Source: Nitrospira japonica
Lineage (GTDB): Bacteria > Nitrospirota > Thermodesulfovibrionia > UBA6902
Reading direction: 5' to 3'
DNA length: 64,000 nucleotides
Assembly (NCBI GenBank): GCA_020723105.1
Contig: DYJL01000008.1
Coordinates: forward strand, 10,564 to 74,563
Shown one piece after another: positions 5,691 to 25,982 of this stretch (positions are counted from its first letter, which is position 1; each line of letters begins with the position of its first letter). The notes under the pieces were generated by a model that was given only the letters and a program-made list of their open reading frames with translations, was not told the origin of the DNA and made no database searches. Both the position numbers and the translations under genes were made by a program.

Positions 5691-7079
5691 ATGAAATTAC
5701 ATCAAATCAAAAAAACAGTTTTCAGAAGCAGTATGCTGGTTTTACTGTTTCTTGTTGCTTTATTTATATTCAACCTTAAAATCTCAAACGCTCAATCCAC
5801 CCTGATAGTAAGTAAAGAAGTTGAGGGCGCAGTCCTTGCTGAAGACTGGGCAAAGGTTGCGAAATTGCTTGATGACGTGAAGGCAGAAACACCCGAACCG
5901 GTACTTCGACTGATCAAAGGACATGCTGATCTGGCATTGAACAGGAACAATGAGTCTTTATGTATGTTCATAAGCGTGGCTTCATCAGATAACGATCTTC
6001 AGGAGTGGGACAAGTGGACACGGGATTTTGCGGGAAGAAATCCAAAAAGCATAATTGCGTATTACTTCAGAGGAGATGCACTGGCAAGAATAAAGAAATG
6101 GGATGAGGCATTGACGGCATTTAACAAGGCTCTGGAACTTAATCCAAAACATGCGATGGTTTTGAATGCGAGAGGGGTTGTGTATGCGGCGAAGAGGGAT
6201 CTGACCCTTGCACGTAATGATTTCGATAATGCTATCAGCATCAACCAGTCTTTCGCAGATGCCTATGCAAATCTCGGTTCAAGATTTATACAGATGAAAG
6301 ACGGAGCGGAAGGAGCGATAAATGAATTTGATAAAGCGCTGAGGATTTCGCCAGGGTTCGCGCTTGCTCTCCATGGAAAGGGGAACGTGGAAGTAATTCT
6401 TTTTCAAATAGAGGAAGCAGAAAAAAATCTTAATAAGGCAAAGGAATATGGGACGTGCGGTAAGGAACTCTTTAATGAAAACATTATTAACATTGCAGCT
6501 TATGTTCATGGAGTGGATAAAAAGGAATTGATTGCAATGATTCCAAAAGATGGAGATGGAATAGGGATGTCATTAAAGAGAACATTTGAAAATCCTGTAG
6601 GTTCATCCGGGTTAAAGCAATTTGAGAATTCATTAAAGAATTTTGAGCGTTTTGGGGGTAAGCCTGGAGTTGGACAGTGGAGTTTTAATAGAGTTGGTGA
6701 AAGTTTCTATCATTTATCTCCTACTGAGAAAATTACAGCCAATAAAATGGTGGATAACTTCCTGGATAAGAATCCAAATTTAAGCAGGCATTTCTATGAA
6801 GGCGCAAAAGATTTCGCACATAATCCTATCAGAAGCTTTGGATACGAAGTAAAAGGGAAAATTGGTGGAACAATGGGTGGGATGGAAGCAGGAGTGAAAA
6901 TTCCCGCCTCTACTTCTGATCAAGCATATAGAGACATCGGCAAGGGGTTCCAAGATAAGGCTATGAATCGTATGAGTAATCTTCCGGAAGGCGTCCTTGC
7001 AAGCCTTGCCGATGCAAATTGGGATGAGGGTCAATGGCCGTTTGTAGAGTACTATGGCCTTATTTACAGCATGAAGTAA
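5691..7079 (+). CDS. Secreted TPR-repeat protein
   Basis: AGGAGGG lies 8 nt upstream of the ATG at 5691, so the longer 5670 start is disfavoured. A signal peptide is present (LVLLFLVALFIFNLKISNAQS). At least 5 TPR-like 34-aa units are visible (AYYFRGDALARIKKWDEALTAFNKALELNP, AMVLNARGVVYAAKRDLTLARNDFDNAISIN and others). Confidence 0.6.
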   Translation: MKLHQIKKTVFRSSMLVLLFLVALFIFNLKISNAQSTLIVSKEVEGAVLAEDWAKVAKLLDDVKAETPEPVLRLIKGHADLALNRNNESLCMFISVASSDNDLQEWDKWTRDFAGRNPKSIIAYYFRGDALARIKKWDEALTAFNKALELNPKHAMVLNARGVVYAAKRDLTLARNDFDNAISINQSFADAYANLGSRFIQMKDGAEGAINEFDKALRISPGFALALHGKGNVEVILFQIEEAEKNLNKAKEYGTCGKELFNENIINIAAYVHGVDKKELIAMIPKDGDGIGMSLKRTFENPVGSSGLKQFENSLKNFERFGGKPGVGQWSFNRVGESFYHLSPTEKITANKMVDNFLDKNPNLSRHFYEGAKDFAHNPIRSFGYEVKGKIGGTMGGMEAGVKIPASTSDQAYRDIGKGFQDKAMNRMSNLPEGVLASLADANWDEGQWPFVEYYGLIYSMK

Positions 7080-7104: not shown

Positions 7105-10100
7105 ATGAAAACAGCTAAATCGAAAACATTGCTTTTTACATTTATTTCCGTCCTGTTTCTCTCTTGCATTGCATATGCGGACCAATTTATTGCCTTTTCC
7201 CTCAATAAAGCAGAAATGGAAATGAGAGAATCAGGACGTTCCCATAAAAACAGGTTATTCGAACTTGGAGGAATAACCCGGCCTGTTGGAATTGTATATG
7301 ATGCCAACCGCAGTGATTTGATTGTAGTTGGGCAGATAAATGAGAAAGAACAAAAAATATCTCTTGATGATTTTGTAGTTGCCTTGAGAGCGATTTCAGT
7401 GTACAAGGAATCTCCGTTGGTGAGCATTGACAGATCTGATGAGACTGAAACAACCAAAAGGCAAAGAGTGCGCTTTGAGGGGGGGATAGAAAATACTAAA
7501 TTCGGAAAAGACTTGCTTGAGGCGGATATCATTCTGAAAAAAATGGGAGTCGGGGAGCTGCGGACCGATATTTGGGGTGTTAAATCCTATGTCGATATGT
7601 CGGCGGAGTATTGGAATAAGACGGGGATTGAGGATTCAGTTTCCAGCCGATTCTGGTTTAAACCTTCAAAAGAAAAATCTTTTGTTGGCGTTCGCGATGG
7701 CGTAGTCATCGTAAAAAAATTAGTAATTGATGTAAAAACGGAAGTTATGGGAGCAATTAATTCACACCGACCTGTGGATGACCGAGCAGGAAGTTATGAT
7801 GAGATCGGAGATAGATTTGCCAGTGCAGTGGCAGCAAATATTGATGATATTGATTCATATTATTCTGAGGTAAAAAGGTTAGACCCTCTTTTTCGATTGG
7901 TTGGTCTGGCTGAGGGTATCAAAAGAGAGGCTTTCAACTTCAAACCTGATATAAATTTCTGGTTGAATGAATATAGAGTAGAACATATAGAAACGCTAAA
8001 GGATTATCCACTGTTAGTGAAAGAAAAGAGACTGGAAAAAAATGGGGAAAACCGTCAAATGACAATTAATGGCGGCATAGAATTAAGACCACTTCTTGTA
8101 GATCTTAATGCTGGTGTTGTAACAGCATTAAGAGATATTGTTATTAAATCCAGACCTGAAGGGAATCCGTTAATATGGAAATTGCCGCTTGAAGGATGGC
8201 AACTACCTGAGGATTCAAAAATAGATATTACTGCATTCGGTAAAAAGTTAAGAGATTCAACTGCGGGGGTAAACGGTATGAGCTTAACTAAGCGGATTTC
8301 CCCTGTTGATTCTCCCGGAAATCAGAAAATAAATTATAAATCATCTCCCCTGTCCGACGGGGGCTCAAACTTCAATTTTACAGATAGATTTTCTCCTCAG
8401 AAATACTCCCCTCACGTCGGCGGAGTTATGCTCCAGGGTGTAGCAAAGGTTTCAGGCGGGGAACAGGCGAAGGTTGATCTCACAAGCGGAAATTTTTCTT
8501 TGATCGTGGGCGGGCAGAATGCGCGGCTTGCACCCGAGGCATACAGAAAATTCATAACAGCGCTATGGTCTGTATATTACAGTCAGAAAGACCCCGGTAT
8601 TTCCATCGATCCGATCGGATGTTTTTATTTTGATCCCTATGACCCTGAAAGGGACAAAAAATTTGCGGAATGCCTGAAACGCTATGAGAAAAAGGAAGAG
8701 AAGCACATGGTCCGCTACATCGGCAAAGTGATCAACACGGACCTTGGGAGAGTCATGCGGGAGGCGGACTACGTGATGAAAAAGTGGTCGGTCGGAACAG
8801 AGAAGCCTGGTATTTCAGGATTCAAAAGCCCGGATGAATACAGGGGCTGGAAAACTACTGATAGCGAAGGATCGAGCCGCTTCTGGTTTGTCCCTGAAGA
8901 TATGAAGTTCAAACGTGGCGGTGACATGCTCCTTTTTGAGGACGGCAGGATGACAGTAAAAACAGAGTATATGTTTAAAAATGATGAAGGTGCACAGGCA
9001 GATCCGTACAACGAAAAGTTTGCCGGGTTCTTTACCGAACACTATGGAGAAATTGCCAATAAATATCCTGTCTATCAGGAACTTTTTGAATATGCGAAAA
9101 TGGTGAGCCTGGCCAAATATCTCAAAGAGCAGGGTCTTCCCATGTTCTGGTTCCTGATGGCTAACAAGGATCTGGTCATTACCGAGGATTCTCCCGGTAC
9201 TGTGGAAGCGCTGGCAAAGGGATCGGATTATTATAAAAACTTATATATAATGGGCGGAGTAGACCTTGGCTTTGATGCCAGACGCGAAGGCAATTATGTG
9301 TATGACCGTGAGGCAGTAAGGGCCATAAATGAAGCTGTTTCCAAGCTCCCTTTAAATGCTTATTCAAAAACCACACTATCTGCAGGGGACATAACTCCTG
9401 CGAGTTCAGAGCCGTTCTCCTTTAACCTTGGAAAGGACAGCTTCACTGTTGTCCCGCAACATTCGCTTACATCAGGCAAGGACAGACATGGGATCAGATA
9501 CCAGACAGACATAGCTTTAAGAGGGACAGGCTTACAACTGACCGGACGGGCGCTTGAGACTATAAAGAACAAAATTATTAGGTGGATGATGGTACAGGAA
9601 CTGAATCCGATATTACGGACTAAAGATACCACTAAATTATCTGAAGCTGAAATTGAAGCCCTTAATAAGAGAATTACAGAAGAAACAGAAAAAGCTAAAA
9701 CGAAAGCAGGAAAGATCATTGAAAAGATGGAGAGTTTAAAAAATATTAAATATACAGATGAAAATAAATTTGTAAAAGCTCTTGAAGAAACCATAGGCCG
9801 GGAAAAAACAGATATTTTTAAGAGAATGGTTATGGAATTTGCCTATTACAACACTAATCTGGACCTCGTACGCTATTTTAAACCGGGACAACAGGACATC
9901 GGAGAGTTCGGTAAAGGCTGGCATTTATTGATACCCTATCGTCTTAAACCCGCAGGCGATGCCAAAAGAAAATTCCTTAATGTGTTGATTCCGGAGAAGA
10001 TGGCTGTAGAAAACCAGCTTACCGGGGATCAAGAGGTGCTCACATTCAGTACAGACCGTTATACAGTTGCAGGTTATGTGCCTGCAAAACTTGAGTCGAG

Positions 10101-11863: not shown

Positions 11864-14557
11864 TTGAAAAACATAATTTTAAATATCAACGGCAGAAGTA
11901 TTCAGACTGTTGAAGGCCGAACAGTCCTGAAGGCTGCGAGAGAAAACGGGATCTACATCCCTACCCTTTGTTACCATCCCCGTACAAAACAGGCCGGCAA
12001 GTGCAGAATATGTGTTGTAGAAGTTGAAGGTTTGCCTGGTTTGAGAATATCCTGTTCGCTCGAAGCAAAAGAGAACATGGTCGTGCTTACAAATACAGAG
12101 CGCGTCCTTGAAACCAGAAAGATGATTGTTGAGTTGTATCTGTCAAGCGGCAAACACAACTGTATTTCATGTGAAGCAAACGGCCGTTGTGAACTGCAGG
12201 AAGTTACATACCGTCTTGGCATAGAGAAGTCCACCTTCCCTGTATTGACTAAAGATTATCCGCCTGATACATCCAGCCCGATGATAATCAGGGACCTGAA
12301 TAAGTGCATTCAGTGTTACCGGTGCATTGCCGGATGCAATAATATCGCAGTTAATGAAGTCCTCGATATGGGGTTTCGGGGCAGCAATATGACTGTAGTC
12401 TGCGATACAAACAAGCCGATGGGAAAATCTTCATGCGTGATTTGCGGCGAATGCGTTCAGCTCTGTCCGACAGGCGCGCTGACAGAGAAAAAGGCCTTTG
12501 GCAAGGGAAGGCCCTGGGAGATAAAAAAAATCAAGACCACATGCCCCTACTGCGGTGTCGGCTGTCAGGTTCATCTGCATGTCAAGGATAATGAGATTGT
12601 GAAAGTGACTGGTGTGGAGGAGGTTGCTCCCAATTACGGCAGCTTATGCATAAAGGGAAGGTTCGGATACGATTTTGTTCATTCTCCTGAAAGATTGAAA
12701 ATGCCGCTTTTAAGAAAGAATGGTAAATTTGTTGAAGTCAGTTGGGATGAGGCGCTCGATTTTACTGCAAGCAGGCTCCTTGAAATTAAAAAGGCCCGGG
12801 GGCCGGAATCTATTGTCGGCATCGGCTGCGCAAGGACTACGAATGAGAACAACTATGTTATGATGAAATTCATGCGTGCGGCAGTTGGCACCAACAACGT
12901 AGACCACTGTGCGCGCACCTGACACGCTCCAACTGTAGCCGGTCTGGCTGCAACTCTGGGTGCAGGCGCAATGTCCAATTCCATCAGGGAGATTGAGAAC
13001 AGCCCGGTCCTGTTTGTAATTGGTTCAAATACAACAGAAGCACATCCGGTTATTGCCAACAGTATGAAGAGGGCCGTCAAGAAGGGCAGCATCCTTATTG
13101 TTGCAGATCCGAGAAAAATTCCCCTTACGCGCTGGGCCACAAAACATTATCAGCATAAGGTAGGTTCAGACATTGCCTTGCTGAATTCAGTGATGCATGA
13201 GATTATAAAAAACGGCTGGCACAACAAAGAATTCATCAGCAGCTATACCGAAGGATTTGATGAATTACAAAAGGTCGTCAGCGCTTATCCACCGGAACGC
13301 GCTTCAGAGATATGCGGAGTTTCAGAGGATGGAATCAGAGAACTTGCAATGCTGCTCGGCACGGCTGAGAGAGTTGCGCTTTATTACACACTCGGAATTA
13401 CCGAACACGTTACAGGGACAGACAACGTCAAAACCTGTGCAAACCTGCAAATGCTTCTCGGCAATATCGGCAAGGAATATACCGGCGTTAATCCATTAAG
13501 GGGGCAGAACAATGTTCAGGGAGCCTGTGACATGGGAGTGCTTCCGGATGTGTTTACAGGATATCAGAAGGTGGCTGATGAAACGGTCCGGGAGAAGTTT
13601 GCAACTGCATGGGGTATTAATTCTTTGCCTGAAACCGCAGGCACAAAAATACCGGCCATGTTTGACGGAATGCTTCACGGCGACATTAAGGCGCTCTATC
13701 TTGTTGGTGAAAATGTAGTGATGTCAGAACCCCATCAGGCGCATACAATCAGGGCGCTTGAAAAACTCGAGCTTCTCATTGTGCAGGATATTTTTTTCAA
13801 TGAGACTGCGCAATATGCGCATGTGGTTTTACCGGCTGCGTGCTTTGCCGAGACAGAAGGGACCGTCACCAATACTGAGAGGCGGGTTCAGCGCGTCAGA
13901 AAGGCCGTGGAACCGCCAGGACAGGCTAAGGAAGACTGGTGGATTATCAGTGAGCTTGCAAGAAGGATGGGCTACCTTATGGACTACACGTCAACAGAGC
14001 AGATATGGGAGGAAGTTCGCAAATTAACGCCAAACATTTCCGGTATTACATTTGAAAGGATCGAGCGAGAGGGCCTTCAATGGCCCTGTCCGGATATTAA
14101 TCATGCCGGTACATGTTATCTTTACTGTGACAATATATTTCCCTGCGGCAAGGCCAGGTTTCAACCTGCACAGTGGAAACCGCCGGCAGAGGTTCCTGAC
14201 AGGGAATATCCGTTTGTGCTTACAACAGGCAGAAGGCTCTGGCATTATCACACAGGGACCCAGATACGAAAATCTGCAGGATTTGATGATGTCTTCCCTG
14301 AGGAACTTATCGAGGTAAACAAGGAAGATGCCGGAAGTCTGGGTATAAAAAATGGCGATTATATCCGCGTTGTCTCACGCAGAGGAATGCTGAGAGTAAA
14401 GGCCTGGGTTACGGACCACGTTTCACCAGGCTTGTGCTTTATGACCTTTCACTTTCATGAGGCCTGTGCAAACGCTCTGACGAACAATGCCTTTGACCCG
14501 TTTGCAGGCACTGCCGAATATAAGGCATGTGCAGTGAGGCTGGAGAAAGAGGGATAG
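11864..14557 (+). CDS. fdhA: Formate dehydrogenase alpha subunit, selenocysteine-containing (NAD-type with N-terminal 2Fe-2S/4Fe-4S NuoG-like domain)
   Basis: TTG start. The N-terminus has a 2Fe-2S ferredoxin and 4Fe-4S motifs (CIQCYRCIAGC, CVICGECVQLCP). Context VDHCART-TGA-HAPTVAGLAATLGAGAMSNS places the TGA at 12920-12922 at the conserved Sec position of FdhA/FdhF. The downstream ORF (12971-14557) is in the same frame. A SECIS-like hairpin lies 13 nt after the UGA. Confidence 0.85.
12935..12951 (+). other. SECIS-like hairpin downstream of fdhA UGA
   Basis: GUAGCC-GGUCU-GGCUGC forms a 6-bp stem (including one G-U pair) with a GGUCU apical loop, like the E. coli fdhF SECIS apical loop. Confidence 0.55.
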
Positions 14558-14574
14558 CGTTATGCAGTCCCTGT

Positions 14575-15264
14575 TTATTTCCTTTCTGGCCCCCTCGACC
14601 AAGGCGATTTGTCTCTTACCTCAACTACGTTAATAAGATACCCGAAGGGATAGTCCGGCTGATAAAGATGGAATTTATCGAACTCAAAGAGTTTTCTTGA
14701 GGCCAGGAGGAATCTGTAACAGGGGTTGTCTTTCTGAAGTATTTCCACCTTTCCATTTACCTGAAAGCTTATATACTGCATGCCCTGAGGAGTGTGAGAC
14801 ATTCCAACATAGAGAAGACTTGAATAAGGATTCTCCCTGAGATTCTCAAGGGCCTTTCCTTCAAATATCTCAAGTCCGCCAAGGATGGCTGGATCAAAGT
14901 TGTCTGTATTCTGATAAAGCCTATGAACAGCCTCGATCCTCTTGTGAAGGCTTTCACGCCACGGCATGGCCCGTGCTTCTACTATGGCAGCCTCAAATAT
15001 ATCTGTATAATCCTGAAGATATTTCGCCTTTGGAATGAGGCCGATTCCCTTGACTGTCATATTCACAGGGAACGAATCTCCCTGCCGCCATGTTGCCATC
15101 ACAGGAAGATGCGCAGCAAAGTAACGCATGGGCTGGCCTTCTTTCATATCATTGAGAAATTTAATCCTTGATGATACAAGCCACTCAAGGAAATGTGCCG
15201 GAATTGCATTTAATGTTAAACGTGATGGATGAAACTGTTGTTCTTTTTCTTTTAATTTCATCAT
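14575..15264 (-). CDS. Conserved hypothetical protein (last gene of the molybdoenzyme operon)
   Basis: A 229-aa soluble protein with no recognisable motif. AAGGAGGG RBS lies 6 nt upstream of the ATG. It is co-directional with, and 52 nt downstream of, the gamma subunit gene. Confidence 0.5.
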   Translation of the reverse strand: MMKLKEKEQQFHPSRLTLNAIPAHFLEWLVSSRIKFLNDMKEGQPMRYFAAHLPVMATWRQGDSFPVNMTVKGIGLIPKAKYLQDYTDIFEAAIVEARAMPWRESLHKRIEAVHRLYQNTDNFDPAILGGLEIFEGKALENLRENPYSSLLYVGMSHTPQGMQYISFQVNGKVEILQKDNPCYRFLLASRKLFEFDKFHLYQPDYPFGYLINVVEVRDKSPWSRGPERK

Positions 15265-15315
15265 ACCCTCCTTTACCCTACACCCTCTGCCCTACACCCT
15301 TTTATTTTCTACACC
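15265..15315 (-). promoter_or_regulatory. G-rich (GGGTGTAGGG)n tract immediately upstream of start codon, potential G-quadruplex/regulatory element
   Basis: The minus strand reads GGGGATAAGAAGAAAAAGGGGGTAGGGTGTAGAAAATAAAAGGGTGTAGGGCAGAGGGTGTAGGGTAAAGGAGGG-ATG. That gives at least 5 GGG runs with 1-7 nt loops. Confidence 0.4.
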
Positions 15316-16203
15316 CTACCCCCTTTTTCTTCTTATCCCCATAATTATTCCAGCCTCTATCCCCAGTGTGCCTATGAAAGCAAGCACCGGATAAAAATAT
15401 ATAGTCTCTTTCTCCTCTGTCTCAAGGGCAACATAGTACCATGTAGAGACAACCTTTCTACCGCCCCTGTCACCTTCAGAGCCATTCCATACTGCAAGAG
15501 AAAGTGGGGTGACGCTGCCTTCCCTGAAAACAACGTCGAATTTATCCTGAGATGTCAGGGGCCGCTTAAACACAACAAACCATTTCCCGGACTGCCATTT
15601 TCCGTTACCGCTGATGTTTTGGATATCAGCCTTTTCCAGATCAGTTGCGTTTCCAAAGCCCTGAGCGATTATATTTTCAACAGGTGAAATTCTCGCTCTT
15701 GATACAGGATTGCCGACCTCAAGGCCTCCGGCAAATTCATCTGATGTTGCATAGGTACTATGCATGTCATTTGCATTTTGCCATGAAGCTTTCCAGAACC
15801 AGATATTTACAGGATTGTCTTTGTCGCCCATTGCAAAATGCGGTTTGGATGCAGCAGCAGATGAGGGAAATTCCAATGCCACGGCATCAGAGAACTTATC
15901 TACATCTAATGACGAATCTTCTGAGGCATCACTCCACTCAAGCAGAAAGGCCATTTCTTTTGTGTTGTGCAGGGCCCGGACCTTTAAATTTTTTACAGAA
16001 GATTCATAGGTCCTCGGTTTTGCCATAACCTGTGGAGCGAGGGGAATTTCAATGGCAGATGCATTGTTCCAGGCGCTGTTATCAGCTTCAAGGGGCAGAT
16101 CACCCGATACCTTCTTTGCCATGACAACAAGACCCTGGGAATAGGCATCAAAAGACAGGAGGAAAAAACAGAGAAGAGCGAAAATAGTTATCATTGCGAG
16201 CAT
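15316..16203 (-). CDS. Gamma subunit of type II DMSO-reductase-family enzyme (EbdC/NxrC-like, haem b), membrane-anchored
   Basis: A start at MLAMITIFALLCFFLLSFDAYSQG gives a signal peptide. The longer ORF extending to 16431 consists of REP repeats. The EB_dh-like domain and a C-terminal TM helix (FYPVLAFIGTLGIEAGIIMGI) are present. It is adjacent to the beta subunit. Confidence 0.65.
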   Translation of the reverse strand: MLAMITIFALLCFFLLSFDAYSQGLVVMAKKVSGDLPLEADNSAWNNASAIEIPLAPQVMAKPRTYESSVKNLKVRALHNTKEMAFLLEWSDASEDSSLDVDKFSDAVALEFPSSAAASKPHFAMGDKDNPVNIWFWKASWQNANDMHSTYATSDEFAGGLEVGNPVSRARISPVENIIAQGFGNATDLEKADIQNISGNGKWQSGKWFVVFKRPLTSQDKFDVVFREGSVTPLSLAVWNGSEGDRGGRKVVSTWYYVALETEEKETIYFYPVLAFIGTLGIEAGIIMGIRRKRG

Positions 16204-16210
16204 AGTGTGC

Positions 16211-16301
16211 TGTCCGTAACAGTTCTTTACACTGTCATTGCGAGGGACGAAGTCCCGAAGCAATCTCACTACGAGATTCCTCGCTTCGCTCGGAATGACA
16301 A
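16211..16301. repeat. REP/MITE-like palindromic element, family A (inverted pair of GTCATTGCGAG...GAAGCAATCTC units)
   Basis: The sequence is CTGTCCGTAACAGTTCTTTACAC-TGTCATTGCGAGGGACGAAGTCCCGAAGCAATCTC-ACTAC-GAGATTCCTCGCTTCGCTCGGAATGACA. It lies in the beta-gamma intergenic spacer. Confidence 0.65.
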
Positions 16302-16345
16302 AGCTGTAAAGATATTTAGCTGACAGGACAATAGGAAAGCAATCT

Positions 16346-16396
16346 TTCTTTTGACTACGAGATTGCTTCACACCCTTTGGGTGTTCGCAATGACAT
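16346..16396. repeat. REP family A single unit (reverse orientation)
   Basis: GAGATTGCTTCACACCCTTTGGGTGTTCGCAATGACA has an internal palindrome CACCC(T/A)AAGGGTG. Confidence 0.55.
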
Positions 16397-16440
16397 CTGA
16401 ACTTGTCTTCATAAATTTGAAATTTTCTCATTATCCCCTC

Positions 16441-17637
16441 CTATGTTATGTTATGCCTGTAGACTTGCAGTTTTTCATCATGGAAGGGCCTGATAAAGAC
16501 AGGCTCTTTTAAGGGCACCTTTACCAACTCTTTACCCTTTTCACCATAACCAGTAACAATGCCCTTTGATACCCTGAATTTTGCGGACCAGAACTCTGTT
16601 GAACCAAATAGCGTCAGAGCCCCCAGCAGGGTTTCATCTTTATGGGCATTTTTGTATGCCGCGACCGCATTCGCAGCATCCGGCCCGAACATCTGTATCA
16701 GATAAGGAAGTGGAACATGTATAGGCGGAATATAATATATATTAGGCTCCAGGCCAAGCTGCGGGTAGAGGGGTAACGCAATCTTCTTGATGTGAACCAG
16801 ATAGTCCACAGGATTTGCAGGGTCCGGCTTATCAGGGGTATGCAGCCAGCCATTAAGTCGTATCCTTCCGATGCAGGTTGTCACACACTGAGTCTGGTGT
16901 CCCTGTTCTGCAAGCGGATAGCAACCAATACATTTTTCAGCTATCTTTGTCGTGTTATTGAAAAGAACTTTTTTATAGGGACAGGCCCTTACGCATTCTC
17001 TGTAGCCTCTGCACCTTTTCTGATCCACAAGGACTATGCCGTCTTCCTCTCTCTTATAGATAGCCTTTCTCGGACAGGCTCCCACACAGGCTGGATATGT
17101 GCAATGGTTGCAAATGCGGGCGAGATAGAAATGCCATACCTTATGAGGCATTGTTATAAAATCACCCTTATCTATTGAGCCAGATGGTTCGTCTTCACCG
17201 ATGTTTGGATGGGCCCAGTCAATTTCCTCAGGGATATAGCCCTGAGCCACCTGCCCCTTTGGTGCAGCCTCAAATATTGTATTGCCTTTATAAACTTTCC
17301 CTTCCCATTTTTGAGGGCCCAGTAAATCCAGTATCTTCACGTCCCACGCCAGCGGATAAAACCCATACGGCTTTGACTCAACATTGTTCCAGAACATATA
17401 CTCCTGCCCCTTGCCCGTGGTCCATGTGTGTTTGCATGCCATGGTGCAGGTCTGGCAGGCAATGCACTTGTTGATGTCGAATACCGCGGCAAACTGTTTC
17501 TGCGGCCTTACTTCTTCGTATGGATAATACATCTCCCTCTGAATCTGCCAGTTCTTTACTTTATTTTTAGCCATTAATCCCTTACCTCCGTAGATTGCTT
17601 CGTCATCCCGAAGAATCGGAATTCCTCGCAATGACAA
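16441..17637 (-). CDS. Beta (Fe-S) subunit of Nar/Nxr-type oxidoreductase (NarH/NxrB-like)
   Basis: CIACQTCTMACKHTWTTGKGQEYMFWNNVESKPYGFYP matches the NarH N-terminus. Further ferredoxin motifs are CNHCTYPACVGACP and CRGYRECVRACP, plus CIGC...C. Confidence 0.9.
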   Translation of the reverse strand: MSLRGIPILRDDEAIYGGKGLMAKNKVKNWQIQREMYYPYEEVRPQKQFAAVFDINKCIACQTCTMACKHTWTTGKGQEYMFWNNVESKPYGFYPLAWDVKILDLLGPQKWEGKVYKGNTIFEAAPKGQVAQGYIPEEIDWAHPNIGEDEPSGSIDKGDFITMPHKVWHFYLARICNHCTYPACVGACPRKAIYKREEDGIVLVDQKRCRGYRECVRACPYKKVLFNNTTKIAEKCIGCYPLAEQGHQTQCVTTCIGRIRLNGWLHTPDKPDPANPVDYLVHIKKIALPLYPQLGLEPNIYYIPPIHVPLPYLIQMFGPDAANAVAAYKNAHKDETLLGALTLFGSTEFWSAKFRVSKGIVTGYGEKGKELVKVPLKEPVFIRPFHDEKLQVYRHNIT

Positions 17638-17671
17638 TCATGTTATATGTCATTGCGAGCGAAGCAATCTC
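17591..17671. repeat. REP family A inverted pair in alpha-beta intergenic spacer
   Basis: The sequence is GTAGATTGCTTCGTCATCCCGAAGAATCGGAATTCCTCGCAATGACA-ATCATGTTATATG-TCATTGCGAGCGAAGCAATCTC. Confidence 0.6.
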
Positions 17672-17688
17672 AATTTGAAATTTTAAAT

Positions 17689-20600
17689 TTAAATTACGTA
17701 TCCTCCAATCAGATACTTCTTCATTGCCTCATTTTCATAAGTCGGGCGGTAACCAAGTGAAGCAGGCCTCCAGAGGCCTTTACCCCCGATTCCTCCTTCT
17801 TCTGCCTTTGTGATTTTTACAAAGGCCTCTCTTGGAGCCCCTACAGGACAGTGAATGTCAGGGGCGAAGCCTTTGCCGATCAGTTGCCCAAAGGTCTCTT
17901 TTCTTATCATTGTATCTGTCATTAATGTAGGACCCAGCCAGGCGCGGGTGCAGCTCTGATGACCGCCGTAGCGGAACATGGCCTGATAGTTTGTTTCCCT
18001 GTTTTTTGCAAGTCCGTCAGGATTGCTTTCATGCGCCTTTACTGTGCCGTGGCTGGCCTGATATAAATTGAACCACATAAGCAACACGCCCCGCGGTATG
18101 CCTGCATAATACCTGGCCCGGCACATCATACGGCTTACTTTATAATCTTCATCACCCTTCTTCCATCCTCTGTACGGCCTGTCTTCGGGATCCGCATCTA
18201 TCCAGATATAGTCTCCGTCGTTTATATTCAAATCTCTTGCATCTTTTGGGTTGATATTTACATACGCCTCGCCAACCCAGGGCATTCTCTTGTCGTGCCT
18301 CTTCAGATCCCCGAACGGTCCAAAATATACAGATATGACGTCAATATCAATGGGCGTTGTATGAGCGCCGTGCCTGTATTTTGGGGTGATGAACTGAAAG
18401 GTCATGCCGTCTTTTACCCTGGGATGTCTGGTCTTCTTAAGTTCAGCCCATGTTTTTACAATATTTCTTACCTGCCGAACTTCAACAGAGAGGTCGTCTC
18501 TCTTAAGTCCGTATGTTTCAGGAGATGAGGGCTTAAGATAATCCAGTTGTTTACTCACAATTACATTCGGCTCATAGAAGGTTGCATCAATAGGCTCTCG
18601 ATAAACAGGCAGGTTCTCGCCATGCTCAATGAACTCAGGCTCTTCCCTGTAAAACTCAAGCCTTCCTGTCTTTGTATACCATGGTTTGCTTTCCTGATGC
18701 TGTTCCCACCCTGGAACCTTTGGATAGGTCCTGAAAAGCACAAGCGCAGGTATGCCTTCCTTTGCTTTGTTCTCAAGTTCCTCTATCTTATATCCCCTGA
18801 GAGAGGTGCTTGCATTGATTATTCTCTGTAAGTAAACCTCTACTTTTTTCTCGTAAACGAATTTCCAGTAATCCTCAAATCTCTTTTCTCCTGTAAGCGC
18901 TGCAAGCTGTTTTGCAACGCCCGCCATTGTTTCTATGTCCGCAACGGTATCATGTATTCTTTTAAGCGGGGTCCTTGGATATACGAGCGCAAAGGGATTG
19001 GTAACAGATGCCGTCAAATCCGGATATTTAAATTCGGCCCATGAGTCCACCCCGAACACTATATCAGCATACTCACAGGAAAGCGTCCACCACCATTCAT
19101 TAACTATTACAGTCTCCATTTTCGGGAGCGTATTGTGCATTACATCATAAAACCATTTGGCATTTCCAATCAGGGAATTACTGTTGACGACCCAGAGCAG
19201 TTTCGTAGGTGTTGGTGTATGTGTCCTGCCTGTAAATAATTTATTTCCTACTCTTAAGGGCCTGTCGCCGTAGTTGTAGTAATGGGCTGATTCAAATTTA
19301 AAATACCCCTTTGGCTTTATGGGCTTTGCAGGGTCCATTTCCGGATTAAACGGGTCCTCCATAAGATACTGGGGTGCGCCATTAAATATCGCTATCCTGT
19401 AATTGCCCGCATAACTGCCGGGGCTGCCTCCAAGATTTCCGATATTTCGCGTCATGGCAGATATGAGGTATAAACCTCTGTCTTTCAGAGCGGCGTTAAA
19501 GAACTGGTTGGGCCCCATGCCAACAGCAAAGAGCGTATTACCCTTGTTTTTCGCAATCTGTCTTGCAAGGCTGACAATGGCTTCTTTGGGAGCGCCTGTC
19601 AACTCTGCAGTATTGTCAGGCGTAAACTCCTCCAGATATTCTTTAACAACATCAAAAACCGGTCTCACTTCTATCTCTTTACCGTCAATGGTGCGGACCA
19701 TAAACCTTCCTTCGAGGGCGATGTCTTTCTTCAAATCGCTGAAGTGCTTGCCGACCTGGTCCCTTGAAATAACTGTCGGGGCCTTCTCGTTTTTATCCCA
19801 CATGACAAAATCGCCCCAGTCATTTCTCAATGCTTCGGGCAGATATTGTTCCTTGTGCTGAGGCATTGGCGGAGGGGTCTCTCCCTGCTGCAATACCTTC
19901 ACATAATTGCTCAACTGCACAGGCTTATAGTCAGGTATAATATCGGATGCCTTGAGATATTGAAGGTTGTCAGTTCTCAGGAGCACAGGCAAGTCAGTAA
20001 AGGCTTTCAGATAATCCGGATCATAAAGATTTTCCTTTATGAGAATATGCGCAATGCCCAGAGCCAGCGCCTGATCTGTGCCGGGCCTTATGATGATTAC
20101 TTCGTCAGCTTTGTTAGCAGTGGATTGATATTCAATAGTTATGTCTATAACCTTTATCCCTCTTAGCCGGGCCTCTGTAAGCCAGTGGCTGTCGGGCATC
20201 TTTGTGCTTATCCAGTTCATACCCCAGATGGTAATAAGGTTTGCATTCTCAGTGGCATGAAGCTCAAAGTCTATGGTCTGCTGTCCCGTGACCATCGGAT
20301 GTCCTGGCGGCAAGTCAGTATGCCAGCTATAGTTATCCCAGTACCTGCCGCCAACGGCCTTGTCAGGACCGGCTTTTCTTATATTTTCATCGAGAAGGGC
20401 AAGCATATTTGAGAAACGGCCCATGCCCGCAACCCTTGTTATTCCGAGAAAATGCATGCCTCCCCTGTGTTTGAGAGTCAGGGTGCCGACTCCTTTCATC
20501 CAGTCAATCATTGATTGATCGTAACCCTGAGCCTTAAGATATGCAGCTCCCTTTTCACCGGTATAAGTCCGTGCAATATTTATATACGCCTTTGCTGCAA

Positions 20601-21132
20601 GTCCGTATGCCTCTTCGTATGGCAGTTTAAGCCACTTGTCTTTTCCTCTCTGGAAAAATTTCACATGCGGTTTCCCTGTCTCAGGGTCCCTCGGGAAGCC
20701 CTCCTTAGCCCAGTCGTAAAAACCCTTTCTCACCATGGCGCCCTTGACCCTTCTGTCTCCATAAAATTTCCTTGCAAGTGCCAGTCCCTTCTGGCAGCAC
20801 CTCGGCTCCCATCTGTGAGTCGGCATATTTCCGTAAGGATCTACAGTTTTTCCATATCCATAAGTAGGCATGATTCTCATAATGACGCCATTCTTTACAT
20901 AAGCCCGTAAAAGACAATTATGTGTGTCATTCGGGGCGCAGGTAAAGACAAAGGTATCATCATATTTGAATTTATCCCGGTATAGTTTTTCCCACTCCCG
21001 ATCCGGATATTCTCCCATCGGATTGTCAATACTCACGGGCTGAAGGAATGCAAGCCTTGGAGAGTTTACTGCCAAACCTGCTGCGCCTGCCAGAGACCAT
21101 TTTAAAAAATCCCTCCTGCTGAAGCTTTTCAT
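17689..21132 (-). CDS. Molybdopterin alpha subunit, type II DMSO reductase family (NarG/NxrA-like), TAT-exported
   Basis: 1147 aa. Twin-arginine signal [17 protein letters not shown] is present. An N-terminal Cys/His cluster ([11 protein letters not shown]...CC) fits an FS0-type site. Size and architecture match NarG/NxrA/EbdA-type enzymes. It is followed by the NarH-like beta subunit. Confidence 0.85.
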
Positions 21133-21833
21133 GCGTTAGCCTCCCCTAAACAAAATTGATTTTCTTCTTCTACTTCTTCGATCTTGAAACCAGCCACTTT
21201 TTGCGGCGAAACAGACAGGTATTTACATTCAGCATCAAGCCACTCAATCAGAAACAGGGCGATAGTATGATAAAAGGAGCTTCCATGAAAACTCAGCGCC
21301 TCTGCAAATACGTTTACCCATCTGCCGAGATGGTCCTCTAAAAATTTCTTTTCCGCAGAGATGCAAAGCGCTGCATTTTCATTTTCACTTTTCAGCAGCG
21401 CCTCAGCCTCTTTCATTGTCACGAGATGCATAAACTCAAGTTCTGTTGCAATCTGGTCCGGCCTGTCTTTTATAAAATCCATTCCCCACGCCCTGTAGAA
21501 TCCGGCGATATCAGCCATTTCACCAGTTGAAAATACAGAGGCTGCAGCCCTGTAGTATTCAGTCTCATAAGGAGGACAATTGCTTTTAAGTGTTAAAAAT
21601 CTCACATGCTCATCCACGGCCTGATCTACATTGAAAGCCTGCAGCTTCCTCAGATTTACGACAGGCCCTGCGAGTTCCGTTTCAAGAGGGTATCGTTTCA
21701 GCGCACTCTCTATTTCATTAAAAAATGTCTTGCTCTTCAGGAAATCTGCAAGTTCTTCATCAGGATAAAAAAAACAGTAACTGAGGAGCCGGTACATCTT
21801 TGATCTGTTAAAAGCTGTTTCAGCGTTATTCAT
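21129..21833 (-). CDS. TorD/NarJ/DmsD-family redox enzyme maturation chaperone
   Basis: A 234-aa acidic helical protein lies immediately upstream of the alpha subunit and overlaps it by 4 nt. YETEYYRAA / GFYRAWG-type motifs fit the TorD-like family. Confidence 0.6.
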
Positions 21834-21885
21834 TTAAACCTTCCCTTTCTTAGCAGTTTTTCTACTCCTTACCCTACACCCTGTC
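21834..21885 (-). promoter_or_regulatory. G-rich TAGGG-type tract upstream of chaperone/nxr-like operon start
   Basis: The minus strand reads CGAGGACGTGGGAGTAAGACAGGGTGTAGGGTAAGGAGTAGAAAAACTGCTAAGAAAGGGAAGG. Confidence 0.35.
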
Positions 21886-22614
21886 TTACTCCCACGTCCT
21901 CGGCTTTACACCGGCCTTGTGATATGTATACATGATTACCTTCCACATCTCATCATCTTCCAGTTCCTCGCCCCAGCCCGGCATTGCACTGTTGAACTGC
22001 TTGTCAAATATGCCGCCGTCCCTAACCCTCCAATACACATATGCAAGCGGAAGCTGAGCGATAGTCCCGGGTTCTTTGAAATTGGTTGGCGCAGCAGGAT
22101 ATCTTATGGCATGCGCAACAGGCCCTTTGCCATCAGCCTCTTTCCCATGACAGGGGAGGCAGTTATCTTCATATATAATTCTGCCTTCCTCAATAAGTTT
22201 TGCATCCCATTTGTCAGGGGCTGCAGCCCATTCAGGGACTTTTAAATCTACAACCCATTGAGGAGGTGTTACGTGAGGCTGAAAGAGTTCGCCGGGAGGC
22301 GAGTATGTAACCTTTTCCTTTGAATAGACATTGTATGCAATAAAAACCGGTAGAAGCACCAAGACAGCTACTCTAAGAGTACTCCATATAATGGGAAGTG
22401 AAGACCTGAAAGAGATGAAATCAAGAAATTCCTCAATCCTCTGGTCCTCCAGAGTTATATGGATAATCACCCCAGCTATAACAAACATCATAAAAAAATT
22501 TGTGAGAGTTGAAGGCAGCGGCGGCTCTGCAACAAACCTCATAAGCACATAAGAACCGATGACTATTAATACAGCAAGTACAGCAGAAGGTATGCCTTTG
22601 TTATGATCGCTCAT
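21886..22614 (-). CDS. Membrane-anchored monohaem c-type cytochrome
   Basis: Two N-terminal TM helices precede a single CxxCH motif (CLPCHG). Confidence 0.6.
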   Translation of the reverse strand: MSDHNKGIPSAVLAVLIVIGSYVLMRFVAEPPLPSTLTNFFMMFVIAGVIIHITLEDQRIEEFLDFISFRSSLPIIWSTLRVAVLVLLPVFIAYNVYSKEKVTYSPPGELFQPHVTPPQWVVDLKVPEWAAAPDKWDAKLIEEGRIIYEDNCLPCHGKEADGKGPVAHAIRYPAAPTNFKEPGTIAQLPLAYVYWRVRDGGIFDKQFNSAMPGWGEELEDDEMWKVIMYTYHKAGVKPRTWE

Positions 22615-23036
22615 TCTAATCCTCCACTTTTTATATCCCCTATCTTCACCTTTGGTCTTCCACCAAGGCTTTGCATATACGCAACAACAGCCGTTATCTC
22701 TGCATCGTTGAGATATGCAGGCGCTTTATTTGCTGCAGGCATAACATCGGTGCCGTTATAAAGTATTGCTGCCATTATCTCTGCATCCCTTTCAGCGCCT
22801 ATCCTGGAGAGGTCAGGCCCTCTCAATGTTTCACCTCTGACACTATGACAAACGCCGCAGCCGGCTCGTTTAAAGATATCCCTCCCTGCCTCTGCCAGCT
22901 CTGCTGGTTTCATATCAGGAGTCAGGACTTTTTTCTGAGGGGCTTCCCACGCAGACTGTGGAATGGAATTGCCAAACCAGGCGTAGAGTCCTGTAACTAT
23001 CAGGGCCACAATTATCAGTTTCGTACCTCCACTCAT
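22611..23036 (-). CDS. Membrane-anchored monohaem c-type cytochrome
   Basis: An N-terminal TM (LIIVALIVTGLYAWF) precedes a single CxxCH motif (CGVCHS) with a distal Met-rich region. It overlaps both neighbours by 4 nt. Confidence 0.65.
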   Translation of the reverse strand: MSGGTKLIIVALIVTGLYAWFGNSIPQSAWEAPQKKVLTPDMKPAELAEAGRDIFKRAGCGVCHSVRGETLRGPDLSRIGAERDAEIMAAILYNGTDVMPAANKAPAYLNDAEITAVVAYMQSLGGRPKVKIGDIKSGGLE

Positions 23037-24724
23037 CTTGCACCTCCCTTTTCCGCTCCTGTAAATCTGAATACCAGGCCTATGAGAAAAAGAAATAACA
23101 GAGTTATCCCTGATATGACCAGAGTTGCATTACCCAGGGCCGGAAGCCCTGCATATTTTGACGTATCTTCAAGGACCCCGTAGACATGCCAGTTGAGCCT
23201 TGCTGCTGCACGGCCATATCCAAGAAGGGCCATGGCCCAGACATTAGATACCGCAACTGCAATCAGGGCATATTGAGACCTCGGAGGCATATGTCCCCAC
23301 CGTATCTCGCCAGTCCTCGGAGCGTTTTTTAACAGCAGGCCGTCAAGGAGATATATTAAGCCGATAGCAGGCACCATAAATATGAAGGTGTAGATAGACA
23401 GCCTTATTCTCGTTGTAGAAGGAACCGTGTAACTGTAATAAAGCACCACAAGGTTTACTGCAATGATAAGCAGGATAATAAGCCACTGGATAAATGAATA
23501 AGCCTTTCGGCCTTCGGGAATAATCCGGCCGGCCCGCCTGTTAAGCAGAAATGTAAGGATTACACCAAGGATTGCGATATTTACCGCAGCGATTTTTGGC
23601 GCCATTATGCCAACGGTGCCGAATATCGGATGGGTCCCTCCTGCCATGTCTTCAAGAGAAGCAACCCAGGCTCTTGGGGTAGCCCATACTGCAAAGGCAA
23701 TAATCAGTCCCCAGCTAAGATAGGGAATATATTTTTTATATTTTTCCGAACCGGGGATTCTCTCAAGCCCGAGCCAGAGGTAATAACATATTCCAATAAA
23801 TACTACTGCAATAACTATGGCCTGAAGCAGCCATATCTTGGAAAGCGCCCCGCCCATGAAGGTGATACCCATCTGTGCATTAAACCTGTAAATCTCCATT
23901 CCGAAATAGTATCCGGCAAAGGGAAGGAATATCATTGTGACCACGCCGACAAAGGTGCCGGTATATCCCATCCAGTCATAGTGGGCCTTTTCATTATCTG
24001 TTTCTGCGGAGAGATATTTATATGCAGCATAGGCCGCGCATATGAAACCGCCAAAGGAAACATTGGCAATAAACCTGTGTATGTTTATGGGCCAGAAGGT
24101 CAGATTGAATATCGCATCTTTAAGGCTTACAAACTTGCCTGCGGAATCAACGCCTGCAGGGCTCAGGTGAAAGGACCCCCACATGTTAGCTGTTATCATC
24201 ACAAGGGTTCCAAGTATATTCAGGACCAAACCAAGCAGTATGTGCTGCATCTTTTTTTCGCACTGAAGCTTATCCCATGTAGTCCAGTAAATATAGACTG
24301 CTGTAGACTCGAGAAACACAAGCGCTGCAAAGAGAGCATATGTTGGTTTGAAGGCGACTGTCATGTAATTCATAAATTTCGGGAACAGCGTGCAGCTTAC
24401 AAGAGTGAACAGACCGCCCAGAATAGCTGTAATGGAATAAGAAGGCGGAAGGAGCCTCGCAAAATCCTTTGCAAGCTTATCGAGCTTTTCGTCTTTTTTA
24501 ACATAACCTGCAATTTCAATTATCATGACAAAGACAGGCACAGCCAGTATAAAGGCAGCAAAAAGAAGCATGGTCTGTGCCACAATCCATACTGCATTTC
24601 TGGCGCCGATTACGGGGAATTCTTTGTAGTCAACACCTGCCTGGCCTCCAATATATATACCTGCTGCTGCTATGGCCAAACCAGCCAAGAGAATAAACTG
24701 CTTTTTAATCCAGCCTCCCATCAA
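23033..24724 (-). CDS. Polytopic integral membrane protein (about 13-14 TM), possible cytochrome bd-like/quinol-interacting subunit
   Basis: 563 aa with many hydrophobic helices. It is co-operonic with the cytochromes c and the Nxr-like enzyme. It lacks canonical CydA N-terminal His and Q-loop motifs, so the assignment rests on context only. Confidence 0.4.
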   Translation of the reverse strand: MMGGWIKKQFILLAGLAIAAAGIYIGGQAGVDYKEFPVIGARNAVWIVAQTMLLFAAFILAVPVFVMIIEIAGYVKKDEKLDKLAKDFARLLPPSYSITAILGGLFTLVSCTLFPKFMNYMTVAFKPTYALFAALVFLESTAVYIYWTTWDKLQCEKKMQHILLGLVLNILGTLVMITANMWGSFHLSPAGVDSAGKFVSLKDAIFNLTFWPINIHRFIANVSFGGFICAAYAAYKYLSAETDNEKAHYDWMGYTGTFVGVVTMIFLPFAGYYFGMEIYRFNAQMGITFMGGALSKIWLLQAIVIAVVFIGICYYLWLGLERIPGSEKYKKYIPYLSWGLIIAFAVWATPRAWVASLEDMAGGTHPIFGTVGIMAPKIAAVNIAILGVILTFLLNRRAGRIIPEGRKAYSFIQWLIILLIIAVNLVVLYYSYTVPSTTRIRLSIYTFIFMVPAIGLIYLLDGLLLKNAPRTGEIRWGHMPPRSQYALIAVAVSNVWAMALLGYGRAAARLNWHVYGVLEDTSKYAGLPALGNATLVISGITLLFLFLIGLVFRFTGAEKGGAR

Positions 24725-24761
24725 TTCCTCCTTTTAACAGGCTGCTGAAAAAGTCTGTTAG

Positions 24762-25982
24762 CTATACGCTTTTCTTATTTCCATGTACTCCCAAAGACCC
24801 CTTCAGCTCACCAATCAGTTCAGATGTTATGATTTTGATTCCTCTTTCCTTTGCCTTTGCTTCAATCATTTTTACAATCATGCCTTTCATGAATACCGGA
24901 ATATTTCGCACCCTGTTTTTTGCAGATTCATCCCATTCAAGCTCTGACTGTAACTCAATGTTCAGGCCTACTTTTTCTTTTCCAGAGGGGCTATAAGTGC
25001 ATAACGAATCCTCTCCCATGAAATCACCGGTATCTGAAAGCGCCCTGGCCCTGCAGCCTCCGCATATCTCTGTATATTCACAGATACCGCATCTGCCGTT
25101 ATACATTTCCTGTCTTAACTGCTGCAAAGACGACCCATTTTCCCAAATACTCACTAAAGACCTTTCTTTTATATTTCCCACGACTGCCGGCATATAGGGA
25201 CAGGGAGTTATATTCCCTTCAGGAGTTATCCTCATGTAATGCCTTCCGGCAAGACATCCCCGCGTGCCTTCTGGAATATTGAAATCTTCTTCATAAAGCA
25301 GTCTGTATATATGCGGCGCGCACCTGGCTCTGACCATTACTCTCTTTTCTGAGCGTGACAATTCCACAATTTTTTTCAAGGCTGCTTCATAGTTATAACC
25401 GGATATATTTGTTTTCATAGCCCGGCCCGTGCAGACCAAAAAAAAGAAATTTACTGCCTTGACCGACAAGGCCACGCCTGCCTCTATAACATCTTTAATC
25501 TCATGTACGTTTTCATCAGTCAGGGTCACATCCACCTGTGTTTCAAGGCCCAGTTCTTTTGCGTTTCTGAGCGCACTGACAGACAGCTCCCAGGCGCCGT
25601 CAAGTCCGCGAAATGCATCATGGTATTTGCTGGTTGCAGAATCAATACTTATCCCGACACCTTTTAATCCTGCCTTCTTTAAGGTCTTTAAATTTTTGTA
25701 TGTAAGAAGTGTGCCATTAGACCCCAGGACCGTAATAAAACCTGCTTTTGAAGAATAACCGATGATGTCAACAAGGTCTTTTCTCAGCATTGGTTCCCCT
25801 CCGCTCAGAATAAGCATAAGGCGATTGTTCAGATAAGAGAGTTCGTCTATAACAAATTTTGCCTCTTTTCCTGTAAGTTCAGCCGAAGCCTCTGAGTCAG
25901 CACTGAGATAACAATGAGGGCAGGAAAGGTTGCACCTTTTTGTTATATTCCATGAAACTAAATAAGGCCTGTAATCTTCCAT
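24762..25982 (-). CDS. Radical SAM/SPASM-domain protein with C-terminal PCP_red-like domain
   Basis: The CNLSCPHC radical-SAM motif is present. A downstream Cys cluster (CGICEYTEICGGC) fits SPASM. The C-terminal segment IPVFMKGMIVKMIEAKAKERGIKIITSELI resembles the PCP_red (protochlorophyllide reductase 57 kD) domain. It may be NirJ/AhbCD-like. Confidence 0.75.
   Translation of the reverse strand: MEDYRPYLVSWNITKRCNLSCPHCYLSADSEASAELTGKEAKFVIDELSYLNNRLMLILSGGEPMLRKDLVDIIGYSSKAGFITVLGSNGTLLTYKNLKTLKKAGLKGVGISIDSATSKYHDAFRGLDGAWELSVSALRNAKELGLETQVDVTLTDENVHEIKDVIEAGVALSVKAVNFFFLVCTGRAMKTNISGYNYEAALKKIVELSRSEKRVMVRARCAPHIYRLLYEEDFNIPEGTRGCLAGRHYMRITPEGNITPCPYMPAVVGNIKERSLVSIWENGSSLQQLRQEMYNGRCGICEYTEICGGCRARALSDTGDFMGEDSLCTYSPSGKEKVGLNIELQSELEWDESAKNRVRNIPVFMKGMIVKMIEAKAKERGIKIITSELIGELKGSLGVHGNKKSV

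Follow-up and report, generated by a model that had tools for sequence, protein, structure and literature searches.

The window analysed here, a 64-kb stretch of contig DYJL01000008.1 from Nitrospira japonica, carries a nitrite-oxidoreductase-type (nxr) gene cluster on its minus strand, and G-rich tracts with recurring TAGGG are found in the spacers of this cluster and at some other sites. These tracts are real, non-random, degenerate heptanucleotide tandem repeats, (GGGNNTA)n. They are a new sequence family within the known class of G-rich heptameric simple sequence repeats (SSRs), rather than a regulatory motif that is conserved and linked to start codons. The reading that we favour, and consider reasonably probable as a whole, is that they are degenerate SSRs located at junctions between a stop codon and a Shine-Dalgarno (SD) sequence, where they would have modest and drifting effects on coupling and stability. 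We are much surer that they are heptamer SSRs than we are of the functional part of this reading.

The gene order of the cluster is usp, radical SAM/SPASM, cydA-like, two cytochrome c genes, a NarJ-like chaperone gene, nxrA, nxrB, nxrC and a gene for a 229-aa protein. The nxrC product has an EB_dh domain, while no Pfam match was found for the 229-aa gene. The nearest NxrA relatives among the GTDB species representatives belong to Nitrospirota/Nitrospiraceae metagenome-assembled genomes (MAGs) with 83% identity. The window has a GC content of ≈41%, and 6.5% of it is intergenic. The sequence of the source genome that was covered consists of the window and 8 kb past its left end. The tracts reported in the initial annotation of this DNA were all found again at their positions, and they are given below together with the other heptamer arrays of the window. 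A canonical G-quadruplex (G4) means here four runs of at least three G with loops of 1–7 nt.

15265-15343, minus strand: main array, between nxrC and the 229-aa gene; GGGG..GGGGGTA GGGTGTA GAAAATA AAA GGGTGTA GGGCAGA GGGTGTA GGGTAAA GGAGGG-ATG; canonical G4 core at 15266-15299.
21862-21895, minus strand: cytochrome c-narJ array, following the stop codon of the gene for a 242-aa cytochrome c; GGGAG TAA GACA GGGTGTA GGGTAAGGAGTAG; no canonical G4.
25983-26015, minus strand: usp-radical SAM array, taking up the whole 33-nt spacer; AAACA GGGCATA GGGAATA GGGGGTA GGGGTAG-ATG; canonical G4 at 25986-26010.
27195-27220, plus strand: array in copy 1 of the family B miniature inverted-repeat transposable element (MITE), antisense to the downstream usp gene; GGGATTA GGGGATA GGGAGTA GGGGG; canonical G4.
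34696-34728, minus strand: counterpart of that array in MITE copy 2, with the third G run changed from GGG to GAG; no canonical G4.
46236-46290, plus strand: tract in the divergent spacer between a response-regulator gene and yggS; GGG..GGGGGGG..GGG..GTGTAGGG..GGGG; loops of 8–11 nt, out of the 7-nt register, no canonical G4.
47092-47116, plus strand: array in a proC-like coding sequence, on the sense strand; GGGATAA GGGACAA GGGACAA GGGG, encoding GIRDKGQG; canonical G4.
40896-40988, minus strand: non-G4 heptamer arrays at a gene junction; GTGAGGA GTGAAAA GTGAGGA GTGAGAA (SD-like, 40957-40988), then TTTACTG x4.7 (40896-40928) in a signal-peptide region.

With at most one mismatch, GGGTGTAGGG was found 9 times in the window against 1.42 expected, a number reached in none of 100 shuffles. 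Canonical G4 motifs numbered 4 against 0.31 expected, with a maximum of 3 in 300 shuffles. The bare TAGGG pentamer is depleted across the window (52 against 100 expected), and the signal therefore comes from clustered arrays and not from the pentamer. Pairs of the form GGG-N4-GGG are intergenic in 35% of cases, as compared to the intergenic fraction of 6.5% (binomial p = 8e-7, though the pairs are clustered and hence not independent). When periods of 4–12 nt were compared, three in-phase GGG runs were seen at period 7 only, and Tandem Repeats Finder returned a period of 7 or 14 at the tract sites. Three-copy tandem arrays with up to two mismatches showed the same trend: six were found at period 7, where shuffles gave 0.33, and periods 8–12 had none. 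The units present are GGGTGTA, GGGCAGA, GGGCATA, GGGAATA, GGGGGTA, GGGATTA, GGGGATA and GGGAGTA. The resemblance to telomeres that had been pointed out is superficial, as telomeric repeats form long arrays where linear replicons end, and the arrays here have 2–6 units and lie inside an operon. The 8 kb beyond the left end of the window contain one 2-unit tract, located before an Iso_dh (leuB-like) gene.

The G-richness of SD regions could by chance give rise to some G-rich tracts, as a real SD is found at or near the end of every array and the plain junctions of the clade are TAGGAGG-like. However, this is contradicted by the shuffle controls, by the exclusive 7-nt phasing and by the 51 nt of repeats found where relatives have none, and we give it almost no credence. 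Heptamer repeats are a general habit of the source genome, as seen from the non-G4 arrays at the 40896-40988 gene junction (GTGAGGA x4 and TTTACTG x4.7). The window also contains other unrelated heptamer arrays, with AAGGGAC x3.7 in proC and GTTRCAA units in yggS.

The heptamer stretches of the proC-like gene (47092-47116) and yggS (46526-46574) both lie inside coding sequences and are 71% alike, with CAAGGGGTAAG at the end of each. In yggS the GTTRCAA units pass gradually into GGGGTAA, a hint that the G-rich and the GTTACAA-type heptamers may be related. A third coding heptamer array is the one at 40896-40928, located in the signal-peptide region of a 451-aa open reading frame (ORF).

The tracts had been described as sitting on the sense strand just before start codons. 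This is directly true for the 229-aa gene and the radical SAM gene, but it does not hold for the other sites. The cytochrome c-narJ array begins 5 nt past the cytochrome c TAA and ends ∼38 nt before the narJ-like ATG, the 27195 array is antisense to the only gene it precedes, and the tract at 46236 adjoins the divergent response-regulator start (∼22 nt from the ATG) on the antisense strand of that gene and lies at least 40 nt from yggS. The arrays are anchored at the upstream stop and not at the downstream start. Those of the nxr cluster start 0–5 nt past the stop codon of nxrC, the cytochrome c gene or usp, and reach the next start because the spacers are short. The main array occupies the whole 51-nt spacer and also overlaps the last nxrC codons, and the nxrC stop codon (15316-15318) is itself one of its TAGs, that of GGGGGTAGGG. 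The usp TGA lies 5 nt ahead of the usp-radical SAM array. Three of the four non-MITE tracts are found between co-directional genes. A position closer to the 5′ neighbour is seen throughout the window (at the nxrC, cytochrome c and usp stops, and by the response-regulator start for 46236), with the MITE copy at 34696 as the exception. The positions of the arrays accordingly do not support a regulatory motif shared by the regions before start codons.

In the usp-radical SAM array TAG is repeated at 7-nt steps and gives stops in all three reading frames when read from the sequence, since 7 cannot be divided by 3. Scans for promoter and terminator consensus sequences over 14000-28500 gave background-level counts with nothing adjoining any array, and a search of the whole window against Rfam at gathering thresholds found no family. 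As no promoter- or terminator-like site stands out beside any array, we only infer that the arrays are co-transcribed with the flanking genes.

Duplex energies were calculated against the canonical anti-SD tail, which was assumed and not read from the source genome. True SDs reached −11 to −14 kcal/mol, compared to −6.4 kcal/mol for GGGAGUAGG and −5.9 kcal/mol for GGGUGUAGG. In the main spacer, 37% of the 9-mers were at −6 kcal/mol or lower against 4% in the background. The last unit of the main array is a true SD, AAAGGAGGG, and GGGGGUAGG is the sole SD-like site of the radical SAM gene (about −9.8 to −11 kcal/mol). We rejected the idea that the arrays serve as SDs in general, as they are followed by a canonical SD in all cases except the radical SAM gene.

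Each tract had further been credited with at least four GGG runs separated by short loops. This is the case for 15266-15299, 25986-26010 and 27195-27220, but not for the tracts cited at 21834-21885, 34690-34735 and 46236-46300. At 21834-21885 there are two GGG runs in the spacer and one in the coding end across a 9-nt loop, while 34696-34728 has three G runs only. The fourth canonical G4 of the window, the one inside the proC-like coding sequence, was not part of the initial annotation. The six cited sites were folded as RNA with ViennaRNA with the G4 energy term switched on. An RNA G-quadruplex (rG4) was part of the minimum-energy fold at three of these, which are exactly the three canonical intergenic sites, and absent from it at the other three. 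For the nxrC-229aa spacer the fold with the rG4 was at −8.6 against −1.2 kcal/mol, and for the usp-radical SAM spacer at −24.2 against −18.4 kcal/mol; the third site was the G strand of MITE copy 1. The G4 potential thus stands, by pattern and by predicted fold, at half of the cited sites and falls away at the other half.

Five groups of related sequence could be compared with the cluster. The closest is a Logan contig (L008) with DNA 95% identical to the window, which covers the nxrC-229aa and the cytochrome c-narJ junctions and has kept both arrays. Independent gene calls on L008 gave the same 51-nt nxrC-229aa spacer (6521-6571). At this junction the G runs are unchanged (0 of 11 G positions) while 4 of 12 aligned loop positions differ, a contrast that is not significant, and there is a 4-nt indel. 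The cytochrome c-narJ array of L008 is 15 nt (about two units) longer and has four G runs. Both L008 arrays are canonical G4s, including the one whose window counterpart is not. In the SURF_11 MAG (L004), where most cluster genes show 75–85% protein identity, arrays are found at both junctions, but with three G runs each and no canonical G4. L009/L010, L001 and L002 are about as distant as L004 and have no G-rich array at the orthologous junctions. Those of L001 and L002 are plain stop-plus-SD junctions such as CATAGGAGGGGATATG. L009/L010 have no array at nxrC-248aa or usp-radical SAM, and their cytochrome c-chaperone spacer of 165 nt contains other repeats, with a different heptamer array (AGTGATG AGTGACA AGTTACA) following the cytochrome c stop in L009.

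The position of the arrays thus persists within a sub-lineage while their sequence, unit number and G4 capacity drift. The shared regulatory motif is further undercut by these data: three of four similarly distant relatives lack arrays, the units and their number differ between 95% identical strains, and L004 has lost the capacity for a G4. In L009 the last nxrC codons contain the SD of the downstream gene (AAAAAGGAGGGG), whereas the window has the homologous AAAAAGGGGG, then the array and then the second SD AAAGGAGGG. From this arrangement the nxrC junction of the window looks like a local duplication of the stop-SD segment. As a side observation, the degenerate AGTGACA/AGTTACA heptamer array in the L009 spacer 8028-8193 comes straight after the cytochrome c stop and is followed by several short hairpins.

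The comparison also bears on a possible function as a selected rG4 switch, which would sit by the ribosome-binding site or the stop and control translation or stability of the nxr cluster, e.g., the ratio of NxrC to the 229-aa protein. Three canonical motifs lie on the sense strand in one operon, with the rG4 in the minimum-energy fold, and between the 95% identical strains the G runs are kept while the loops vary, with both L008 arrays canonical. Rehm et al. (2015; PMC4692102) state that translation can be repressed by G4s in an artificial bacterial system, and effects of bacterial rG4s on gene expression are reported in two further papers (PMC6974567, PMC10801317). However, G4 capacity is not conserved: L004 has three G runs at both junctions, and the cytochrome c-narJ array has two G runs in the window against four in L008. 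Degenerate units like GAAAATA and GGAATA show decay, and three relatives have the same operon without an array. We therefore regard a selected rG4 switch as doubtful. As array RNAs that could serve as G4 test molecules we propose GGGUGUAGGGCAGAGGGUGUAGGG and GGGCAUAGGGAAUAGGGGGUAGGGG together with the three-run versions of L004.

The regular spacing might also be read by an oligomeric RNA- or DNA-binding protein that recognizes UAG or GGG triplets at 7-nt spacing, as seen for HutP or for TRAP with its triplet repeats. The HutP site consists of three XAG motifs with 4-nt (U4) spacers in the model RNA, which gives a 7-nt period (PMC2425495). TAG (UAG in the RNA) is likewise found three times at a 7-nt period at 25987-26005 and 27200-27218, there as TAGGG at exact 7-nt steps, and across strains no part of the unit is better conserved than GTAGGG. 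Unlike the HutP system, there is no terminator near any array, and thus nothing to antiterminate, and the host is no relative of Bacillus. No candidate protein was identified, though a HutP homolog was not searched for. Neither the number of units nor their spacing is stable, as steps of 6, 7, 8 and 10 nt occur within arrays, one unit of the main array is GAGGG instead of TAGGG, and close relatives lack the arrays. A binding site of this kind is in our view very unlikely.

Two of the tracts are carried by a mobile element. The family B MITE is 169 nt long with 36-nt terminal inverted repeats, and its two copies (27148-27316 and 34606-34774) are 88% identical. The tracts noted earlier inside these elements, 27195-27220 and 34696-34728, were confirmed as one array carried in the MITE. 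All tracts could then be fragments or footprints of this element, as both copies bear the same array beside one terminal repeat, and the A-rich run after the MITE array resembles the sequence around the nxrC stop. This is contradicted for four of the six sites. Matches to the 30-nt MITE end are limited to 27150, 27281 and 34612, and MITE ends flank two of the six tracts. As they match nowhere else, the remaining four tracts are independent of the MITE, and the suggestion that the motif is simply part of the MITE wherever it occurs fails. The loops of the non-MITE tracts also differ from those of the MITE array, and L008 and L004 share non-MITE arrays at orthologous junctions. An origin of all tracts from the MITE is highly improbable on these grounds. 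The fetched loci contained no additional MITE copy.

Two observations on the surroundings of the MITE copies can be added. At 27100-27185 of the window the 389-aa usp ORF (GTG at 27185) reads through a MITE terminal repeat, and its L009 homolog is 359 aa long. For both reasons the true usp start is probably ∼30 codons downstream of the GTG, which would put the MITE upstream of the gene. In addition, a solo stretch at 44047-44087 is 78% identical to a 41-nt segment that runs from the flank of the 34606 MITE copy across its outer end, and has no recognizable partner end.

Among known systems, the closest are the G-rich heptameric SSRs with the unit GGGAATC (GGGANTN) in Xanthomonas and GGGGA(C/T)T in Nostoc PCC 7120 (Rehm et al., 2015; PMC4692102). 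These are intergenic, mostly between aligned ORFs and rarely between divergent ones, and lie on average 28 nt from the 5′ neighbour against 160 nt from the downstream ORF. They are found within 50 bp past the stop (sense) or before the start (antisense), with some overlapping stop codons, and convergent inverted pairs are frequent. Between two species 83% of the arrays are in the same gene context, yet length and sequence vary. Repeats of this class are highly abundant over the whole genome, and arrays of four units are preferred. The repeats fold into G4s in vitro and no function has been identified (PMC4692102). The arrays of the window share the 7-nt unit with a run of 3–4 G, the short heterogeneous arrays, the intergenic bias and the G4 capability. 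They are also mostly located between aligned ORFs, near the 5′ neighbour and with overlap of a stop codon, and their position is kept while length and sequence vary in close relatives (the window against L008 and L004). The unit, however, is GGGNNTA and not GGGAATC or GGGGAYT, and each unit carries a TAG, such that three units stop all frames. The host belongs to Nitrospirota, the arrays are more degenerate, and no inverted pair was seen in the window. We place the tracts in this class because they agree with it in all testable positional and evolutionary features, even though the unit consensus does not. The GGGGA(C/T)T repeats of Nostoc are of the cyanobacterial STRR heptamer type (Mazel 1990).

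Less close are the TAACTGA direct repeats, heptamers that occur in marine Beggiatoaceae and in some Cyanobacteria and Bacteroidetes and for which a post-transcriptional role was proposed but not demonstrated (MacGregor, 2015; PMC4679880). These are also heptamer direct repeats in 2–6 copies, intergenic, often right before starts and with stop codons in the forward orientation. Unlike the arrays of the window, the TAACTGA unit is unrelated, not G-rich and without G4 potential, and except at the radical SAM gene the window arrays are followed by a canonical SD. Mrazek (2007), as relayed in the two papers above (PMC4679880, PMC4692102), found heptamers to be the most over-represented unit of long SSRs in many bacteria and proposed polymerase slippage. 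As far as that account goes, the window is similar in its over-represented period of 7 and in having several unrelated heptamer units, but its arrays are short and imperfect compared to long SSRs, and active slippage in them would be an inference. A phase-variation SSR was also considered and rejected, as the units are imperfect and the arrays lie between cistrons of respiratory enzymes, and not as near-perfect units at surface or virulence genes.

The repetitive extragenic palindromic (REP) sequences and bacterial interspersed mosaic elements (BIMEs) of enterobacteria are palindromic intercistronic hairpins that are mobilized by RAYT transposases. The window arrays resemble them in lying just past stops within operons, where protection of the upstream mRNA and lowered coupling to the next cistron are plausible. 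They differ in being direct repeats without a hairpin, and inverted pairs of a G-array and a C-array were seen only in L004 and some metagenome loci. A search of the literature on G-quadruplexes in Nitrospira intergenic regions found nothing, and no description of a GGGNNTA-type unit family was found in the literature searched.

Metagenomes were scanned with GGGNNTAGGGNRTAGGGNRTAGGG, with at least four G runs required, which gave at least 120 loci (L012-L131). The following counts are all among the matches listed, and gene contexts are based on crude ORF calls with the G strand taken as plus. About one third were eukaryote-like telomeric variants, and true TTTAGGG-type telomeric arrays were found only on short eukaryote-like contigs. 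After eukaryote-like TTTAGGG/TGTAGGG contigs had been filtered out, there were 77 loci on prokaryote-like contigs with 33–73% GC and 4–11 G runs per array. Their units are mainly GGGAATA, GGGTGTA and GGGAGTA, with GGGGATA also present. The arrays were co-directional sense in 13 cases, co-directional antisense in 12, convergent in 14 and divergent in 3 (p = 0.013 for convergent against divergent), and the 5′ neighbour was the closer gene for 30 of 42 (p = 0.008). They often lie directly past a stop codon or overlap it, and in about ten the upstream ORF ends within the array, although a TAG-bearing array ends any sense ORF by construction. Inverted pairs of a G-array and a C-array, 140–350 nt apart, were seen in four loci (L017, L031, L058 and L070). 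Judging from this, heptamer arrays of the TAGGG type seem to be widespread in prokaryote-like contigs, with the same rules of placement.

In the favoured reading, replication slippage or local duplication would make and remodel the arrays, which may be seeded at the G-rich stop-plus-SD junction (TAGGAGG-type) typical of the clade. The arrays would be transcribed within one long nxr-cluster mRNA as a purine-only and otherwise unstructured intercistronic segment, which would present several SD-like sites and a TAG in each of the three frames. If at least four G runs survive, a three-tetrad rG4 could form beside the downstream ribosome-binding site. Most likely, translational coupling and the local stability of the mRNA at the junction would be modulated to a modest and drifting extent, with no dedicated conserved switch. 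The MITE array is carried passively.

Several points speak against this. The units are heterogeneous, which makes ongoing slippage inefficient, and the retention of arrays at two junctions across 75–85% protein identity could reflect selection. The constancy of the G runs between the 95% identical strains, where a third of the loop positions changed, is suggestive, though not significant. The evidence is confined to 64 kb + 8 kb of the source genome, and the metagenome contexts carry the crude ORF calls and the built-in stops mentioned above.

A bolder proposal sees in the arrays an intercistronic punctuation of the nxr operon that is under selection. An rG4 and/or a protein reading UAG or GGG, together with the three-frame ribosome stop, would set the stoichiometry of NXR subunits to accessory proteins, with drift in copy number as a tuning knob. 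The proposal builds on the purine-only segment that appears to be retained at two junctions across genus-level divergence; we consider it unlikely. As a further part of it, the arrays might act as recombination boundaries for cassette exchange, because the narJ-nxrA segment of L004 is discordantly divergent and bounded by arrays. In this segment (L004 9271-13520) narJ (35% aa identity) and nxrA (70%) are far more diverged from the window than the flanking genes (75–85%). Its edges are the G-heptad array after the cytochrome c gene and a (GGGTTCAA)4 array with its inverted complement after nxrA, and a cassette replacement with breakpoints at the repeats may have taken place.

G-rich heptamer repeats are abundant in some bacteria, with an odd placement by the 5′ neighbour. 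The GGGNNTA family with its built-in TAG is new, in a phylum for which the literature searched holds no earlier description of the class. As these arrays lie inside a well-understood and highly expressed respiratory operon, their effect on the neighbouring cistrons is measurable. That the position persists while G4 capacity does not argues against assigning a regulatory role to each and every bacterial G4 motif. In annotation, stop codons can come from such arrays, and on the C-rich strand ORF calls overextend.

Some other features of the region were also observed. A G-rich stretch, CAGGGTAGGGGTGTTGGGGAG, with a G4Hunter score of 1.8 lies at 35070-35104 (minus strand), antisense inside the 568-aa gene 34880-36586. 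A 139-nt repeat is present in two inverted copies (16203-16341 and 42933-43071) with 96% identity, the first of which lies inside the nxrC reading frame. L008 lacks ∼129 nt (43 codons) at this site, and nxrC is 371 aa in the window against 328 aa in L008. The repeat looks like an in-frame insertion of a mobile element near the N-terminus of NxrC. The nxrA-nxrB spacer of L009 (12334-12474) contains a palindromic element, CCCTCTCCC...GGGAGAGGG. That of the window contains a hairpin-rich element of ∼120 nt (AAGCAATCT...AGATTGCTT...TCGCAATGACA, 17579-17698), which is absent in L008, where nxrA and nxrB overlap, and of which related copies are found in the window at 16337-16395 and 30035-30093.

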